DNA of 9,753 nt from a virus (Duplodnaviria; Heunggongvirae; Uroviricota; Caudoviricetes): the IMG/VR virus record IMGVR_UViG_2734482541_000013, one strand, 5' to 3'. The stretch's first letter is position 1; the number at the start of each line of letters is the position of its first letter. Under the pieces are notes generated by a model. The model was not told the origin of the DNA. It searched no databases and saw only the letters and a program-made list of their open reading frames with translations. Below are positions 4,961-9,753 of this stretch, piece after piece. Position numbers and translations under genes: made by a program.

Positions 4961-5556
4961 TTACTTCACAACTCCCGGAAAGCTGACATTTGAACGCCAG
5001 CTATCCCAGTTAAACGTCACCCACCGACAACCGTTCATGGTCATGCGGTCCATAATCCTCTCACCAAGAAGCGTGCTCATTGCGGCATGATTCAGGTTTG
5101 TTAACATCCCGACACTGCACAGTGATGCTGTCCGGCGATCAATTATCTGGTGCAATACCACCTGCTCGTTTTTCGTCTCCCGCTGAATGCCTATTTCATC
5201 CAGGACCAGCAAATCAACCCCGCAAAGCTCCTGTAAAAATTTTTCACCGGATTTGCCGTTGTCGTAGCTGTCATGCAACACGCTCATGACATCAGACTCG
5301 GTGACGATAATCACGCTGCGCCCCTTCGCCATCAGCCGGTTACCCATCGCCGCTGCAAGGTGATTTTTCCCGGTGCCGGTTTTACCGCTGAACACAAAAT
5401 TCGTGCACCCGGTCATCAGTTCGTCAGCTATGGATTTGGCCTGGCTCAGCGCGTATTTTTGCCCGTCGTTCTGCACCTGATAATTCGCAAACGAGCATTT
5501 GCTGTGCAGAGGCTGGATGCCCGAACGATTCAGGATTTTTTCCACCCGCAACTGGC
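4961..5556 (-). CDS. DnaC-like replicative helicase loader (AAA+ ATPase, IstB/DnaC family); N-terminus lost in the assembly gap
   Basis: Walker A GKTGTGKNHL, Walker B LLVLDEIG, and DnaC-type C-terminal signature WVTFNWDSWRS. The six-frame track fuses it to the upstream gene only because the N-run is a multiple of 3. Confidence 0.85.
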
Positions 5557-5847
5557 NNNNNNNNNNNNNNNNNNNNNNNNNNNNNNNNNNNNNNNNNNNN
5601 NNNNNNNNNNNNNNNNNNNNNNNNNNNNNNNNNNNNNNNNNNNNNNNNNNNNNNNNNNNNNNNNNNNNNNNNNNNNNNNNNNNNNNNNNNNNNNNNNNNN
5701 NNNNNNNNNNNNNNNNNNNNNNNNNNNNNNNNNNNNNNNNNNNNNNNNNNNNNNNNNNNNNNNNNNNNNNNNNNNNNNNNNNNNNNNNNNNNNNNNNNNN
5801 NNNNNNNNNNNNNNNNNNNNNNNNNNNNNNNNNNNNNNNNNNNNNNN
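5557..5847. other. Assembly gap (291 N)
   Basis: Uninterrupted run of n characters from 5557 to 5847. Confidence 0.99.
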
Positions 5848-6829
5848 GGAGCAACCAGGGGTTTTCAAAATTCCGGTCCGGCCCAAAAAACGTCGTCGCT
5901 CGCTGAACAAATTCCGTTCCCGCTTTCCCGGTCGCCGCCAGGTATCTCGCGTAACGCCTCACACCATCCAGCATGGTCTCTGGTGGCACCCCCTCGCGCA
6001 ATCTGGCCTTCCAGGCACTGAATGCGGATTTCTTCGGGTTTGCCCCGGCACGCAACGGGTATTCCCGCCAGACCTGTTCGAACACATCCGGATAATCCAC
6101 TCGTCCCACAGGCTGCCCGGTGTTTTCCGGGGCTACCCGATCGGCTTCCCGCTGAATGGCGGAATCGGCTTCAGGCTGCTGCAGTTGGAGTGATTGCTCC
6201 GGCCTTGCGGTCATCACCTGCTGCACAGCGCCCGAATCGGCTTTCAGCGCATACGCTGAATCGGCTTCCGGTGTCGAGCCTGCTGGCTGACCAGGATTGA
6301 CGGTCTGAACATCCCCTGCCTGGTTCGTGGCGTTTTTTACGCCATGGACCATAGTGTTTTGATCTTCTTTATCTGTATCTTTATCTGTATCTGTCGTGAC
6401 TCGTCGTGACATGTGCGTGACATTTCGTGACGCGCCGTGACAATCGCCATTTTGTTCCCGCTTTCTTTCCCTCTCTCGCTGCGCCCTCTTGCGCTCTGCA
6501 GGAGATTTTGCGGTTTGCGAAATATTGCCGTTGTCCTCTTTAAGCACCTGGCGTTTTTCCCATCCAGTGATTAAATCACCATCAAGTACCCGCCCCTGCA
6601 TCGTCTGCAAAATTGAATCAATTACCTCTTCTGTCACGTCGAGCGCACTTGCCAAATCTTCTGTCGTGACATCAATGTGACCTCGCGTGACATTTCGTGA
6701 CGCGCTCACCAGGAGGTGGATATACACTGCCATCACTGTTGCAATTGGCTGCCCTGACACCCTGGCAATTGTTCGCCACTTAGGGTCATTTGGCATGTCA
6801 TGCCATAATCTGAGCCAGGCGTTAGCCAT
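5848..6829 (-). CDS. Phage replication initiation protein, lambda O-like / YdaU-like; C-terminus lost in the assembly gap
   Basis: ATG at 6827-6829 with RBS AGAGGTGA upstream (a GTG at 6835 is an alternative start). Position immediately upstream of the DnaC-like gene, as in O-P / ydaU-ydaV arrangements. Acidic/basic low-complexity linker and internal iteron-like repeats. Confidence 0.7.
6366..6441. repeat. Iteron-like array 1: tandem 12-mer TCTTTATCTGTA x2, then five CGTGAC repeats at 10-11 bp phasing
   Basis: 12-mers at 6366-6377 and 6378-6389. CGTGAC at 6395, 6405, 6416, 6426 and 6436. An AT-rich stretch lies immediately upstream. Located inside the O-like coding sequence. Confidence 0.6.
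6633..6705. repeat. Iteron-like array 2: four (C/T)GTGAC repeats at 10-11 bp phasing plus one inverted copy
   Basis: CGTGAC at 6665, 6686 and 6696; TGTGAC at 6676; inverted GTCACG at 6633-6638. The 21-mer GCGTGACATTTCGTGACGCGC at 6685-6705 is identical to 6415-6435 in array 1. Confidence 0.6.
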
Positions 6830-6900
6830 ACTCACCTCTTCTGATACCGAATCTTTTTACTCACGAGTTGCCGGGAGCGATTCGATATGGCTATTGTCAG

Positions 6901-7326
6901 TCAATGTACTGCCACAGCATTTCCTGCCGGGCCACCACGGTTCATCTGATTGAAACCGGCGATTGCCACTGCGACAAAATCATCAGCGTCTCTCACCAGT
7001 CGTTCATGCGTCTCCACCAGTTCCCGAAAATAAGCTGAACTGTGGCTGCGCATTCGAGCCACCAGCGGAGGTGGCATTGCCCTTTCGATCGCAGGTAACA
7101 ACGCCTGAATTTTTTCAACAGCGTCAGGGGTGTCTTTATCCAGCCAACGGAAAATCTTTTGGGTGTTGAGATAAAGCGTGTTGTGCTTGCTGTCGTTATG
7201 CAGAACCGGAAACGTCATTCCCAGTTCGAAATAAACCCTGGTTATTTCAGCTGCCGGAACTTTTTCACCGTCCGGATGCGCCCAGGCTTTCATCGCCATG
7301 CGGATGTGTTCATGCTTGATTTTCAT
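6901..7326 (-). CDS. YdaT-like protein (Rac-prophage YdaT family; CII-position regulator / putative toxin)
   Basis: 141-aa ORF starting MKIKHEHI, which matches my recollection of the Rac YdaT N-terminus. Its ATG (7324-7326) overlaps the stop of the upstream cro-like gene as ATGA. Confidence 0.6.
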   Translation of the reverse strand: MKIKHEHIRMAMKAWAHPDGEKVPAAEITRVYFELGMTFPVLHNDSKHNTLYLNTQKIFRWLDKDTPDAVEKIQALLPAIERAMPPPLVARMRSHSSAYFRELVETHERLVRDADDFVAVAIAGFNQMNRGGPAGNAVAVH

Positions 7327-7586
7327 GAATCAACCCCCGCCGATGGTTGTGTGTTAGCCTGAAACTCAGCAGGCAAGCCGTCAGTTGGGTTGGGGTAGGT
7401 TTTACTGTCAATCTCATGTGGGGTCACCACCCATCCCGTTGCTTCACACCAACGTAATATTTTTTCTCCTGTAAGTTTTGCACGCCCCGTTATAACGTGG
7501 CTGACCATCCCTTGGGATGCGCCAACAATCTCAGCAAATGAACTCTGGGTTATATGAAAATGATGCAAATATTCTCCAAGATTCAT
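7323..7586 (-). CDS. Cro/YdaS-like helix-turn-helix DNA-binding protein
   Basis: HTH segment ITQSSFAEIVGASQGMVSHVITGRAKLT. ATG at 7584-7586; the six-frame ORF extends to a TTG at 7613. Divergent from the repressor gene across an operator-containing intergenic region. Confidence 0.65.
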   Translation of the reverse strand: MNLGEYLHHFHITQSSFAEIVGASQGMVSHVITGRAKLTGEKILRWCEATGWVVTPHEIDSKTYPNPTDGLPAEFQANTQPSAGVDS

Positions 7587-7622
7587 AATCCGCCCTATGT
7601 GATGTGTTACCAATGCATAATT

Positions 7623-7662
7623 AATAGCACTGTTATTTTTAAAAGTAAATAGTGATACTATT
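7623..7662. promoter_or_regulatory. OR-like divergent promoter/operator region: two 15-bp operator-like repeats
   Basis: AATAGCACTGTTATT (7623-7637) and AATAGTGATACTATT (7648-7662), 25 bp centre to centre, between the divergent repressor and cro-like genes. Each matches a copy in the downstream pair at 13/15. Confidence 0.45.
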
Positions 7663-7697
7663 TCAAAGTGATTAGCAATCTTATTAGAATTGGATGT

Positions 7698-8198
7698 ATG
7701 AAAAGAAAATCATTGTCAGACACCGACCTCAACGCCGCCAGAAGACTGAAAGAAATCTGGATGGCAAAGAAATCTCAGTTGGGATTGACTCAGGAACGTG
7801 CGGCGGAAATTATGGGGTTTTCAACACAAGGGGCGGTAAGTCACTACCTAAATGGTCAAACCCCACTAAACCTTGAGGCTGTTCTAAAGTTTGCTGGCTT
7901 ACTGAAAGTTCCCCCTGAGTCAATCAGGCCAGACATGGTAGATTTGCTGCAAATTGCAAGGATGTATTGTCGAGAACCACAGCAAGATAACATAGTCGCA
8001 TTACCAGCAGACACAGAACAAACAGAGGATGAACTACCGTTTGCCGTAGAGCCGATGGAACGAGATTTAATCCATACGTTCAGAGCTTTTCCGAAAGAAG
8101 ATCAAGAACACATGCTTCAGGAGATGAAAGATAAAAAAGAATCAATGGATCGTACGGTTGCGCGGTGGTTAGCTGCACAAAAAGGCCGTCGCGCCTAA
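7698..8198 (+). CDS. CI-like HTH transcriptional repressor (PaaR2-like regulator of the downstream toxin-antitoxin pair)
   Basis: XRE-type HTH LTQERAAEIMGFSTQGAVSHYLNGQ. ATG at 7698 is in frame with the 176-aa six-frame ORF, whose upstream part lacks an RBS. Followed 19 bp later by the antitoxin gene. Confidence 0.7.
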   Translation: MKRKSLSDTDLNAARRLKEIWMAKKSQLGLTQERAAEIMGFSTQGAVSHYLNGQTPLNLEAVLKFAGLLKVPPESIRPDMVDLLQIARMYCREPQQDNIVALPADTEQTEDELPFAVEPMERDLIHTFRAFPKEDQEHMLQEMKDKKESMDRTVARWLAAQKGRRA

Positions 8199-8217
8199 AT
8201 CAGAGGAGATATGTAAA

Positions 8218-8412
8218 ATGAGTACAGTCCTTTCCCCAATGGTTTCAGAATTTGAGACAGTTGAGCAAGAAAATAGTTACAACGAATGGCTGCGGGCCAA
8301 AGTAGCAGCAAGCCTCGCGGATCCCCGCCCGGCGATTCCGCATGATGAGGTAATGGCGGAAATGGAACAAATTATTGCCCAAATTGCTGCTGCAACTCAC
8401 AGAGGTGAATAA
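8218..8412 (+). CDS. paaA2: PaaA2-like antitoxin (partner of ParE-family toxin)
   Basis: RBS AGAGGAGA 8-9 nt upstream. The N-terminal 45 aa (SPMVSEFET.EQENSYNEWLRAKVA.SLADPRPAIPHDEV) match my recollection of E. coli O157 PaaA2; the C-terminal tail differs, so the paralog (PaaA1 vs PaaA2) is unresolved. Stop TAA overlaps the toxin ATG (TAATG). Confidence 0.75.
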   Translation: MSTVLSPMVSEFETVEQENSYNEWLRAKVAASLADPRPAIPHDEVMAEMEQIIAQIAAATHRGE

Positions 8413-8702
8413 TGTTACCCGTTTTATGGCTACCATCTGCTCGTGATGATTTGCGCCAGATCGTAGCCTACATAGCTAAAGAAAATCCCGCGGCAGCACG
8501 CAGAATGAAAATTCGAATTGAAACATCCGTTTTGCCGCTCACAGAGCATCCTTACCTGTATCCTCCAAGCGAGCGAGTTCTTGGTCTTCGTGAAATTGTA
8601 ACTCATCCTAACTACATCATCCTTTACCGAGTAACAGCATCAAGCATAGAAGTAGTAAATATTGTGCATTCTCGAAGACAGTATCCAGGCAAAAACAGTT
8701 AA
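8412..8702 (+). CDS. parE2: ParE/RelE-superfamily toxin (ParE2-like)
   Basis: 96-aa ORF, start overlapping the antitoxin stop. Size and sequence character (LPVLWLPSARDDLRQIVAYIAKENPAAA ... IILYRV ... IEVVNIVHSRR) fit ParE-family toxins; operon order regulator-antitoxin-toxin. Confidence 0.75.
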   Translation: MLPVLWLPSARDDLRQIVAYIAKENPAAARRMKIRIETSVLPLTEHPYLYPPSERVLGLREIVTHPNYIILYRVTASSIEVVNIVHSRRQYPGKNS

Positions 8703-8718
8703 TTATTCCCGCCGACAG

Positions 8719-8743
8719 AACCACCTTAGGGTGGTTTTTTCTT
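8719..8743 (+). terminator. Rho-independent terminator downstream of the toxin gene
   Basis: Stem AACCACC (8719-8725), loop TTAG, stem GGTGGTT (8730-8736), followed by a T-run (8735-8740) and CTT; 17 bp after the toxin stop codon. Confidence 0.65.
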
Positions 8744-8758
8744 GCCCCAACAAAAAAC

Positions 8759-8800
8759 AATAACGATGCTATTTACATCAAAAAAAATAATGATGCTATT
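8759..8800. promoter_or_regulatory. OL-like operator pair, probably overlapping an early-left promoter
   Basis: AATAACGATGCTATT (8759-8773) and AATAATGATGCTATT (8786-8800), a 14/15 direct repeat 27 bp apart, matching the repeats at 7623-7662. Confidence 0.45.
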
Positions 8801-8981
8801 GTTTCAGGCGTCAACCCACCCCGCCCCACAGAATGCAGGGCAATACTTCGAGTTACCAGACAGTGGTCAGGGGTTAAGTAGCCAGCCCGAGGCGTAAGAA
8901 CATGACGGCAGGGTTCAATCTTTAACTATGCAGCAGGTTTTTTGTTCCGCCACCCCGGCGTTAAGGGGAAATGAGGTCAGC

Positions 8982-9134
8982 ATGGATACTATCGATCTTG
9001 GCAACAACGAATCTCTGGTGTGCGGCGTGTTCCCTAACCAGGATGGAACGTTTACCGCCATGACGTATACCAAAAGCAAAACGTTTAAAACCGAATCTGG
9101 CGCGCGTTGCTGGTTAGCCAGAAACACTGACTGA
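8982..9134 (+). CDS. Small prophage protein, YdaF/YdfA-like (DUF1391-like)
   Basis: 50-aa ORF MDTIDLGNNESLV... with RBS GAGG 6 nt upstream of ATG 8982. The N-terminus matches my recollection of the small gene next to the repressor in Rac/Qin prophages; family name from memory, not verified. Confidence 0.5.
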   Translation: MDTIDLGNNESLVCGVFPNQDGTFTAMTYTKSKTFKTESGARCWLARNTD

Positions 9135-9511
9135 TGAGGCTGACGATGGAATTTAAAGATTTACCGTCTGATGTACAGAAAACAGCAGCTCATACATTGC
9201 ATTCTGTGCTGCGAGAAATCGGGAAAGATATTGCAAGCGAGCCAGCAAAAGATCTGGCCCGGAAAATCAAGACCGCTTTCGTTGAGCTTTATAATGTTGG
9301 CACTGACTCTGAAACTGTCGAGACCAAGACCGTAAGTTCACCAATATTCTCACTTGAGCCAAGCGTATTATCAGGTGAAATATGCACCGAGATTTCCAGC
9401 GAACTGCTTCCGGTAATACGAGAAGCAATTCGCCGTCGCGGTTTGGATGGAAGTTATGATCATGACGTTCTGCAAGTTCTCAGGACAATGGTGACTTCAC
9501 TGGGGATTTGA
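9134..9511 (+). CDS. Hypothetical prophage early protein
   Basis: ATG 9134 overlaps the previous stop (TGATG). An alternative ATG at 9146 (MEFKD...) has GAGG 8 nt upstream and may be the true start. No motif recognised. Confidence 0.5.
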   Translation: MRLTMEFKDLPSDVQKTAAHTLHSVLREIGKDIASEPAKDLARKIKTAFVELYNVGTDSETVETKTVSSPIFSLEPSVLSGEICTEISSELLPVIREAIRRRGLDGSYDHDVLQVLRTMVTSLGI

Positions 9512-9753
9512 TCCCTGCGTCCTCTAAGCTTTTGATATAGCGGTCCTCCAAGAAGCGGTAAATTTTGTCGAAATCATCTTTTCCCTCTGGTTTATTCAGA
9601 GGATTACAGGACCCGTAAGTAGCGGCATACATTTCAACCGTTTGGTAATGACTCCAACTTATTGATAGTGTTTTATGTTCAGATAATGCCCGATGACTTT
9701 GTCATGCAGCTCCACCGATTTTGAGAACGACAGCGACTTCCGTCCCAGCCGTG

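Follow-up and report, generated by a model that had tools for sequence, protein, structure and literature searches.

Organization of the locus

The window analysed here is a stretch of 9,753 nt (9.75 kb) from IMG/VR record IMGVR_UViG_2734482541_000013 (Caudoviricetes), and the host of this prophage is probably Shigella sonnei or a close relative among Escherichia coli. Two sets of genes diverge within it. On the minus strand lie the genes for an 87-aa Cro/YdaS-like HTH protein (7323..7586) and for YdaT (6901..7326; Pfam YdaT_toxin, E = 5e-9), whose role as a CII analogue is taken from PMC8630535 and PMC9986795. A perfect YdaT recognition site, TTGATTTTCATGAATCAA (7316..7333), is found at the ydaS/ydaT junction in the position of a PRE analogue, the published site being TTGATTN6AATCAA (PMC9986795). 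On the plus strand, a 166-aa repressor is encoded at 7698..8198, the ATG at 7698 being the one from which its RefSeq relatives are annotated. After a gap of 19 nt follow the genes for a PaaA2-type antitoxin (8218..8412, plus strand; Pfam PaaA2, E = 3e-23) and a ParE toxin (8412..8702, plus strand; Pfam ParE_toxin, E = 1.8e-17), which are 75 and 67% identical, respectively, to the corresponding CP-933P-type proteins. No terminator is found before 8717, consistent with a single operon.

This repressor-toxin-antitoxin (TA) operon is closed by an intrinsic-terminator-like hairpin followed by a T-run (8717..8742, plus strand). The hairpin, to which the first-pass annotation had drawn attention, proved to be real on folding (8717-8739, -15.1 kcal/mol, z = -3.3). 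The terminator scan missed it, probably because the stem is able to extend into the T-run, and called the homologous hairpin of one related locus (L001) as a terminator. Further downstream, a ydfA-like DUF1391 gene (8982..9134, plus strand) is the first gene of a dicB-type operon that is served by the predicted promoter PL and is interrupted by IS1 from approximately 9641. The leader at 8812-8927 is common to thousands of E. coli prophages; an Rfam search returned zero matches across the window, this conserved leader included.

A repeated palindromic motif

[quoted passage not shown] They are designated here OR1 (7623-7637, AATAGCACTGTTATT), which is the operator closest to the Cro-like gene, OR2 (7648-7662, AATAGTGATACTATT), OL2 (8759-8773, AATAACGATGCTATT), the distal left operator, and OL1 (8786-8800, AATAATGATGCTATT), the proximal one. 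A reverse-complement match of 13/15 noted at the same time is likewise correct and pairs the 7623 site with the 8759 site. The degenerate consensus put forward for the repeats picks out the same four places in eight strand-hits against 0.10 expected, but the true consensus of the family, derived from 29 unique strong sites, is the 7-1-7 palindrome AATAGCAnTGCTATT.

Its skeleton, AATA-N7-TATT, has four exact matches in the whole window, where 0.10 are expected, and occurs nowhere else in it; four matches were attained by none of 200 shuffles of the window. When a weight matrix was built from the two upstream sites alone, the two downstream sites ranked directly after them among all positions of the window, and the reciprocal matrix, built from the two downstream sites only, recovered the upstream pair in the same way. 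The fifth-best weight-matrix match in the window is a weaker copy at 7671-7685 (ATTAGCAATCTTATT), which scores 12 bits against a background of at most 9 and is designated OR3.

Predicted promoters and their relationship to the sites

The predicted PR (7621..7649, minus strand), read from the sequence, consists of a -35 TTTACT (7649-7644), a 17-nt spacer, and TGc preceding a -10 TATTAA (7626-7621), with hexamers and spacer length identical in all relatives; it serves the genes for the Cro-like protein and YdaT and those for replication. The divergent predicted PRM (7662..7690, plus strand) has a -35 TTCAAA, 17 nt, and a -10 TAGAAT. From this -10 to the repressor ATG is a gap of 7 nt in the window and of 6-7 nt in all relatives, which provides no space for a Shine-Dalgarno sequence; the repressor mRNA would therefore be leaderless, as are those of paaR2 and lambda cI (PMC8630535). 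The predicted PL (8772..8802, plus strand) reads away from the repressor-TA operon and comprises a -35 TTTACA (8772-8777), a 19-nt spacer, and TGc preceding a -10 TATTGT (8797-8802), and homologous promoters were called by the promoter scan in three related loci (L001, L007, and L013). A minus-strand promoter called by the scan at 8814-8787 (TTGACG-16-CATTAT) was rejected as PL, since it aims into the terminator and its hexamers are unconserved in L001-L003.

The sites are interlocked with these promoters in a lambda-like geometry, those at OR overlapping the conserved divergent PR and PRM, and those at OL overlapping PL. OR1 overlaps the predicted PR spacer and the first 4 nt of its -10. OR2, 25 bp from OR1 in every locus, shares 2 nt with the PR -35 and abuts the PRM -35, its center lying at about -43 from the repressor ATG/TSS, and OR3, which follows OR2 at 23 bp, falls within the PRM spacer. 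OL2 and the PL -35 share 2 nt, with which the site ends and the hexamer begins, and OL1 runs from within the PL spacer through the extended -10 TG into the -10, where it takes in the first 4 nt.

Such overlaps raise the question of whether the repeats are mere duplicated promoter modules, without any function as operators, that reflect the -35/-10 context which PR and PL share. TGcTATT, an extended -10, is found in both OR1 and OL1, and both OR2 and OL2 finish in the first TT of a -35. We regard this explanation as very improbable, however, because no promoter element corresponds to AATAGCA, the left half of the site, because the sites have dyad symmetry, OR3 carries the motif outside any PR/PL promoter context, and a single motif recurs in distal and proximal sites despite the different promoter elements that they overlap. 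The motif also switches with the HTH domain of the locus (see below), whereas sigma-70 does not. Part of the likeness between OR and OL could be due to shared promoter sequence, since PR and PL are homologous promoter modules.

Conservation of the sites and covariation with the HTH domains

Of 16 related loci fetched, 12 that carry the repressor N-terminal domain, from approximately seven lineages, were compared site by site. The motif search of related prophages that the first-pass annotation had proposed as a check thus finds the sites conserved in every locus compared (12/12). Three OR sites spaced by 25 and 23-24 bp are present in all 12, with OR1 kept at the homologous position and a ATTAnnnnnnnTATT site at the position equivalent to OR3, and all 12 have two OL sites just past the end of the cargo, at 0.2-2.2 kb downstream of the repressor gene. 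The cargo is of the ParE/PaaA, HigBA, HicAB, or HipA-like kind or is lacking altogether. A third OL site was looked for on both sides of the OL pair, and none was found in the window or in any relative. All five sites are retained in relatives at about 78% nucleotide identity. The centers of the sites vary while the outer AATA/TATT is fixed, an invariance that is partly due to searching with that pattern, and off-target AATA-N7-TATT occurs just three times in about 65 kb of these loci. The genome-contig scan with the repressor N-terminal domain gave a sole match, a Christensenella locus (L006), which was set aside as irrelevant, its AATA-N7-TATT matches being AT-rich background.

The OL region of the window departs from this pattern. 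Its two sites are 27 bp apart, whereas relatives outside Shigella have them at 24-26 bp; two additional A residues in the run at 8780-8787 account for the difference, an expansion found only in the window and in one Shigella sonnei contig (L023). The PL spacer measures 19 nt, beyond the usual 16-18 nt, which is also the range in the non-Shigella relatives; in two of the loci (L004 and L022) the run has six A residues, not eight, and the spacer is 17 nt. Given this longer spacer and wider site spacing, control of PL may have decayed in the lineage of the window.

Across the seven or so lineages, the motif and the repressor HTH vary together, as do the motif and the recognition helix of the Cro-like protein. 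Sister loci that have the same TA genes and flanks and a different HTH lack the motif and carry a repeat of their own at both OR and OL, which is AAAAACTGT..ACAGTTTTT in two heteroimmune loci (L005 and L020) and GTTTAGT in a third, of CP-933P type (L021). It is scarcely credible, then, that the matches arose by chance in intergenic sequence rich in A and T, or that they are targets of a nucleoid protein of the host: the regions are indeed AT-rich, but the shuffled windows never attain four matches, the position and spacing of the sites are constant across lineages whose flanking DNA is unalignable, and the motif follows the phage HTH domains.

The promoter of a type II TA operon is in most cases bound by its antitoxin. 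As the sites bracket the TA operon, the PaaA-ParE complex might use them to regulate its own synthesis, in the manner of conventional type II systems, an explanation that we consider highly improbable and that the comparative data have in effect refuted already. Antitoxins of the PaaA2 type have no DNA-binding domain (Pfam; PMC8630535), and the Pfam match in the antitoxin of the window is the 33-aa toxin-binding motif. Furthermore, the same sites are found in loci where the space between repressor and OL holds no TA genes or holds HigBA, HicAB, or HipA-like cargo in place of ParE/PaaA, and the motif is absent where homologous PaaA/ParE genes adjoin another repressor HTH.

The repressor and the Cro-like protein

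The repressor is composed of a lambda-CI-like N-terminal HTH domain (aa 2-81) and a PaaR-type C-terminal domain (aa 123-166). Residues 2-81 align to residues 3-81 of lambda CI, including the N-terminal arm (1LMB, E = 2.9e-9), and the HTH is recognized by Pfam HTH_3 (E = 8e-9). In the C-terminal 44 residues, 23/44 (52%) are identical to CP-933P-type PaaR2 (E = 3e-15), the comparison being with the in-frame part only of the paaR2 gene of L021, which has a frameshift in the A-run at its start; the BLASTP alignment of the two proteins is confined to these last 44 residues. The PDB sequence matches to a PaaR-type query (of the L005 type) include no PaaR2 chain. Pfam finds no Peptidase_S24 match in the repressor at E <= 0.1; the repressor thus lacks the S24 autoprotease/oligomerization domain, and RecA-mediated induction is therefore not expected. 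Some relatives, of 243-255 aa, are fusions of the CI-like domain with a whole PaaR protein and hence contain two HTH domains.

The recognition helices of the Cro-like protein (SQGMVSHV) and the repressor (TQGAVSHY) are alike, with QG-VSH in common. The operator sites of the repressor very probably serve the Cro-like protein as well. An alternative is that the sites serve the Cro/YdaS-like protein alone, or that the two proteins read different sub-motifs, and that the 166-aa protein acts elsewhere. The Cro-like helix does co-vary with the motif as much as the repressor N-terminal domain does, and the exact sequences bound by PaaR2 and by YdaS were not resolved in CP-933P (PMC8630535). Against this, the N-terminal domain of the repressor is a lambda CI homologue and has the QG-VSH helix motif in common with the Cro-like protein, and in CP-933P the footprints of PaaR2 and YdaS overlap, both proteins repressing PR, PRM, and PL (PMC8630535), so that we judge this alternative to be very improbable.

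A model for a probable immunity switch

The five sites very likely serve as right and left operators in a prophage immunity switch of the lambda type, in which the repressor is co-transcribed with a ParE TA pair. The analysis shows that the sites exist and are significant, how they are arranged and conserved, and that they co-vary with the HTH domains, and it shows the homologies; that the repressor binds, in what order the sites fill, and that activation, looping, and initiation on a leaderless mRNA occur are inferred, as follows. Dimers of the 166-aa repressor would read AATAGCAnTGCTATT through the lambda-CI-like N-terminal HTH. The filling of OR1 and OR2 would block PR and turn off the Cro-like gene, ydaT, and the replication genes, while a dimer on OR2, just 5' of the PRM -35, could activate PRM, and the weaker OR3 in the PRM spacer would provide negative autoregulation at high repressor levels. 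Repressor on OL2 and OL1 would cover the PL -35 and extended -10 and so turn off the ydfA/dicB-type early-left operon. A leaderless transcript from PRM would carry the repressor gene, paaA, and parE and stop at the hairpin that immediately precedes OL, and the TA pair would therefore be lysogen-expressed cargo within the immunity region, like lambda rexAB. The Cro-like protein probably competes for the sites of the repressor. The PaaR-type C-terminal domain may give higher-order oligomers and looping between OL and OR over approximately 1.1 kb; both properties are extrapolated from PaaR2, with which the repressor shares only its last 44 residues.

A further proposal, which we consider unlikely, is that the immunity region is made up of two exchangeable units. 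One would be a specificity unit, in which the CI-like HTH goes together with the recognition helix of the Cro-like protein and with the AATAGCAnTGCTATT operators of both OR and OL, and the other a PaaR-type C-terminal oligomerization domain and the cargo after it. The 166-aa repressor may then be a natural domain-swap hybrid that loops OL to OR around the TA cargo by means of PaaR-type oligomers, and the 243-255-aa relatives could be swap intermediates, or could be repressors of dual specificity, giving immunity to two groups of phages.

If the model is right, the operator AATAGCAnTGCTATT and the matching repressor and Cro helices would define a previously undescribed immunity specificity. In the phage collection that was searched, no record of this immunity type was found, the best match to the repressor N-terminal domain being 57% (Rac-SA53 dicA); an Stx2 phage group matches that domain at 52%, and the OR of one such phage (L019) has one AATAGTCTAGCTATT only. 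The loci form a family with TA and other cargo genes riding inside the prophage switch, the slot between repressor and OL being occupied by ParE/PaaA, HigBA, HicAB, or HipA-like genes according to lineage. They would extend the CP-933P model, in which a CI-like repressor and not the antitoxin controls the TA pair, to a second, unrelated DNA-binding domain. The specificity should be of use in prophage annotation and in the prediction of superinfection immunity groups, and changes no concept.

Comparison with known systems

The early-left operon is of the type found in the dicA/dicC/ydfA-dicB region of the E. coli K-12 Qin prophage (ydfA-ydfB-ydfC...dicB in relatives), whereas the Qin repressor and operators are not alike to those of the window. 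Qin is not known to carry TA genes in the interval from dicA to the promoter of the dicB operon.

With lambda, the locus shares a homologous repressor DNA-binding domain, three tandem operators between divergent PR and PRM, and a second operator cluster at PL past lysogen-expressed cargo. OR2 and OR3 of the window are centered at about -43 and -20 from the PRM start, and their lambda counterparts roughly at -42 and -19. The lambda OR/OL layout suggested in the first-pass annotation stands at every level that sequence can test, with two refinements, namely that OR has three sites and not two and that the Cro-like protein very probably acts at them too. The differences are that the operators are 15-bp sites of another sequence and OL has two of them, not three; that the C-terminus of the repressor is a short PaaR-type helical segment in place of the S24 autoprotease/oligomerization domain; and that the cargo is a ParE TA pair, not RexAB, with YdaT as the CII analogue.

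A close parallel in layout is the paaR2-paaA2-parE2 region of CP-933P/Sp12 of E. coli O157:H7 (Hallez 2010; PMC8630535), which has the same order of YdaT, Cro/YdaS-like protein, divergent promoters, repressor-PaaA-ParE, terminator, PL, and ydfA, together with a perfect YdaT site, operators at OR and PL/OL, and a repressor, PaaR2, that also has no S24 peptidase domain (PMC8630535). Its OR plus OL/PL arrangement, under the control of PaaR2 and YdaS, was demonstrated experimentally (Jurenas et al. 2021, PMC8630535) by EMSA, DNase footprinting, 5' RACE, and GFP fusions of PR, PRM, and PL. The two loci differ in their DNA-binding domains, that of the window being lambda-CI-like and unrelated to that of PaaR2, and in their operators, which are AATAGCAnTGCTATT in the window and GTTTAGTAA palindromes in the published system; neither operator region of the window contains GTTTAGTAA, which has three one-mismatch matches elsewhere in the window, about 1.4 being expected. 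They differ too in the number of sites, three plus two in the window against a reported four inverted repeats/three operators at OR and three at OL. The architecture is already known from CP-933P, and on sequence grounds the switch in the window is very probably a new specificity of that design.

Organization of the region

As ordered from Pfam and the RefSeq annotation of near-identical loci, the minus strand carries a YdaT gene (6901-7326) and a gene for an 87-aa Cro/YdaS-like HTH protein (7323-7586). The plus strand carries genes for a 166-aa HTH repressor (7698-8198), a PaaA2-type antitoxin (8218-8412) and a ParE toxin (8412-8702), a terminator (8717-8742), and a ydfA-like DUF1391 gene (8982-9134), which in relatives is the first of the ydfA-ydfB-ydfC...dicB operon. 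In the window this early-left operon is broken, after a 125-aa ORF (9134-9511), by an IS1 end (9641-9753, starting at about 9641). A Shigella sonnei contig with two base differences from the window stops exactly at the IS1 start, and repressor proteins identical or 99% identical carry the Shigella sonnei label in the protein search. The call of a 624-aa IstB/DnaC-like replication ORF (4961-6835, minus strand) is not reliable because 291 consecutive N (5557-5847), masked or unsequenced, fall inside it. The leader between the early-left promoter PL and ydfA (8812-8927) is highly conserved, with matches in thousands of E. coli genomes, K-12 and heteroimmune prophages among them; an Rfam search of it gave no match, and it may act as a nut-like or some other kind of regulatory RNA or DNA element.

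Operator-like sites and promoters

The first-pass annotation described four 15-bp operator-like motifs bracketing the repressor and toxin-antitoxin genes, and each is found exactly where it was placed: OR1 (AATAGCACTGTTATT, 7623-7637) and OR2 (AATAGTGATACTATT, 7648-7662) upstream, OL2 (AATAACGATGCTATT, 8759-8773) and OL1 (AATAATGATGCTATT, 8786-8800) downstream. Its degenerate consensus returns the same four places, its 13/15 reverse-complement match between an upstream and a downstream copy is correct, and there is a genuine hairpin (8717-8739, -15.1 kcal/mol, z = -3.3) after the toxin gene and ahead of the downstream pair. The pattern AATA-N7-TATT has four matches in the 9753-base window, all at these sites, with 0.10 expected. 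A weight matrix trained only on the upstream pair places the downstream pair directly after it, ahead of all other positions in the window, and the converse is also true; with either matrix the following match is a fifth site, OR3 (ATTAGCAATCTTATT, 7671-7685), which scores 12 bits where the background reaches at most 9 bits. The original observation is confirmed and extended.

The sites overlap three predicted promoters. A plausible PR, serving the Cro-like gene, reads TTTACT-17 nt-TGcTATTAA on the minus strand (7649-7621); OR1 covers its spacer together with four bases at the start of its -10, and OR2 shares two bases with its -35. PRM, the repressor promoter found by promoter scan (TTCAAA-17-TAGAAT, 7662-7690, plus strand), has a -10 ending 7 nt before the repressor ATG, and a leaderless mRNA is therefore predicted. 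OR2, centred at about -43, adjoins the PRM -35, and OR3, centred at about -20, falls inside the spacer, much as OR2 and OR3 are placed at PRM in lambda. PL (TTTACA, 8772-8777, and TGcTATTGT, 8794-8802, plus strand) reads into ydfA, with the end of OL2 forming the first TT of its -35 and OL1 spanning its spacer and extended -10. Because the A-run at 8780-8787 has eight A, the PL spacer is 19 nt; with six A, the spacer of the closest E. coli relatives (L004, L022) measures 17 nt and their OL1-OL2 spacing 25 bp, against 27 bp in the window. The eight-A form is common to the window and Shigella sonnei contig L023, and PL may have become weaker in this lineage through the two added A.

Conservation and covariation with the DNA-binding domain

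The whole module occurs in about 70 E. coli genomes at about 78% nucleotide identity, three of which have all five sites at homologous positions, with the outer AATA(G)/(C)TATT fixed, variable centres and indels in the flanks; one OL2 copy among close relatives is a perfect palindrome, AATAGCACTGCTATT. The protein search also returned repressors in which this N-terminal domain (47-75% identical) is joined to another C-terminal half, with other cargo downstream. Sixteen loci with this domain were fetched, and 12 of them, from about seven lineages, were mapped site by site. The motif, whose presence in related prophages had been proposed as a check, stands at OR and OL in all 12: the top weight-matrix matches are three sites in the divergent intergenic region, spaced 25 and 23-24 bp, and two sites 24-27 bp apart lie just past the cargo, 0.2 to 2.2 kb beyond the repressor gene. 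Elsewhere in these loci, about 65 kb in all, AATA-N7-TATT matches just three more times, and from the 29 unique strong sites comes a symmetric consensus, AATAGCAnTGCTATT. The hexamers of PR, PRM and PL are conserved though the surrounding DNA is not alignable, as is the distance of 6-7 nt from -10 to ATG, and promoter scan calls PL independently in L001, L007 and L013. Chance matches are excluded, as none of 200 dinucleotide-preserving shuffles reached four and the layout persists across these unalignable surroundings.

The slot between repressor and OL varies in content: PaaA/ParE in the window (8218-8702), HipA_2 and DUF3037 in L007-L009 (L007, 3787-5836), HigBA in the Salmonella loci L013 and L014 (L013, 3612-4339), HicAB in L018 (3878-5263), unknown genes in L015 and L016 (L015, 3825-4573), and nothing in L010-L012 and L017. 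In L007 and L016 a minus-strand DUF2767-type gene begins just before OL, as does an unannotated small gene in L018, which may put a divergent promoter opposite OL as well in these three. That the sites serve toxin-antitoxin autoregulation is excluded, because they remain in loci without those genes and PaaA2-type antitoxins have no DNA-binding domain (Pfam; PMC8630535). Conversely, in loci L005, L020 and L021 the HTH is another one, and what is shared is YdaT, the PaaA/ParE genes, the ydfA leader and the PaaR C-terminal domain; AATA-N7-TATT is absent from all three, each of which has its own repeat at both OR and OL positions (AAAAACTGT...ACAGTTTTT in L005 and L020; GTTTAGT-type repeats, agreeing with the published consensus, in the CP-933P-type L021). 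By sequence comparison, it is the DNA-binding domains that the motif follows, not the toxin-antitoxin genes.

Residues 2-81 of the repressor form a domain homologous, down to the N-terminal arm, to the N-terminal DNA-binding domain of lambda CI (E = 2.9e-9). Residues 123-166 share 52% identity with the C-terminal end of CP-933P-type PaaR2, and Pfam finds no S24 peptidase domain in the 166 aa; the protein is a hybrid of a CI-like N-terminal part and a PaaR-type C-terminus. The Cro-like recognition helix (A/V)(S/T)QGMVSHV, similar to the repressor's TQGAVSHY, is retained in all motif-bearing loci and is replaced by AQQTVWQW in the heteroimmune L005. Repressor relatives P0018, P0020 and P0022 (L007-L012, L015-L018; 243-255 aa) join the same CI-like domain to a complete PaaR-type protein, P0018 residues 115-244 being 71% identical to full-length 132-aa P0042, and such repressors therefore have two HTH domains. 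AATA-N7-TATT is the only operator type evident at their OR.

Since the motif brackets the repressor with any cargo and overlaps three conserved promoters, the sites are very probably OR and OL. Together with the HTH covariation, this supports the lambda-type reading first drawn by likeness to the operators around cI-rexAB. Pure promoter duplication, by which the repeats would be copied promoter sequence, leaves unexplained the dyad symmetry, OR3, the fact that the motif covaries with the HTH, and the half AATAGCA, which is no promoter element. Under the OR/OL reading, repressor binding, an order of occupancy, PRM activation and leaderless initiation would be expected, and looping would involve the PaaR-type C-terminal domain.

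Comparison with CP-933P

The architecture is already known, because Jurenas et al. (2021; PMC8630535) reported the layout of E. coli O157:H7 prophage CP-933P. There the 97 bp between paaR2 and ydaS are footprinted by PaaR2, reported to be octameric in solution like CI, and by YdaS; both proteins repress PR, PRM and PL, the last with OL1-3 beyond the toxin-antitoxin operon; YdaT activates a PRE, and paaR2 is leaderless (PMC8630535). In the CP-933P-type paaR2 of E. coli ETEC1732 (L021, 1196-1210), the A-run after the ATG is one A shorter, so the published leaderless start is frameshifted, reading MQKKK... and then stopping.

What is new is the specificity, that is, the reader domain and its operator. 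The phage collection searched holds no record with this N-terminal domain above 57% identity, and the literature search found no paper describing this specificity. Beyond it, the side observations of most interest concern the hybrid repressor, its relatives with tandem HTH domains, the cargo slot with its varied content and the PL spacer of the window, longer by two A. The window resembles CP-933P in carrying a perfect YdaT site (TTGATTTTCATGAATCAA, 7316-7333, across the ydaS stop and ydaT start; site as defined in PMC9986795) where the PRE analogue of CP-933P is described. It differs in that its DNA-binding domain is lambda-CI-like instead of the PaaR2 HTH, and in that its operator is another 15-bp sequence, in a 3+2 arrangement.
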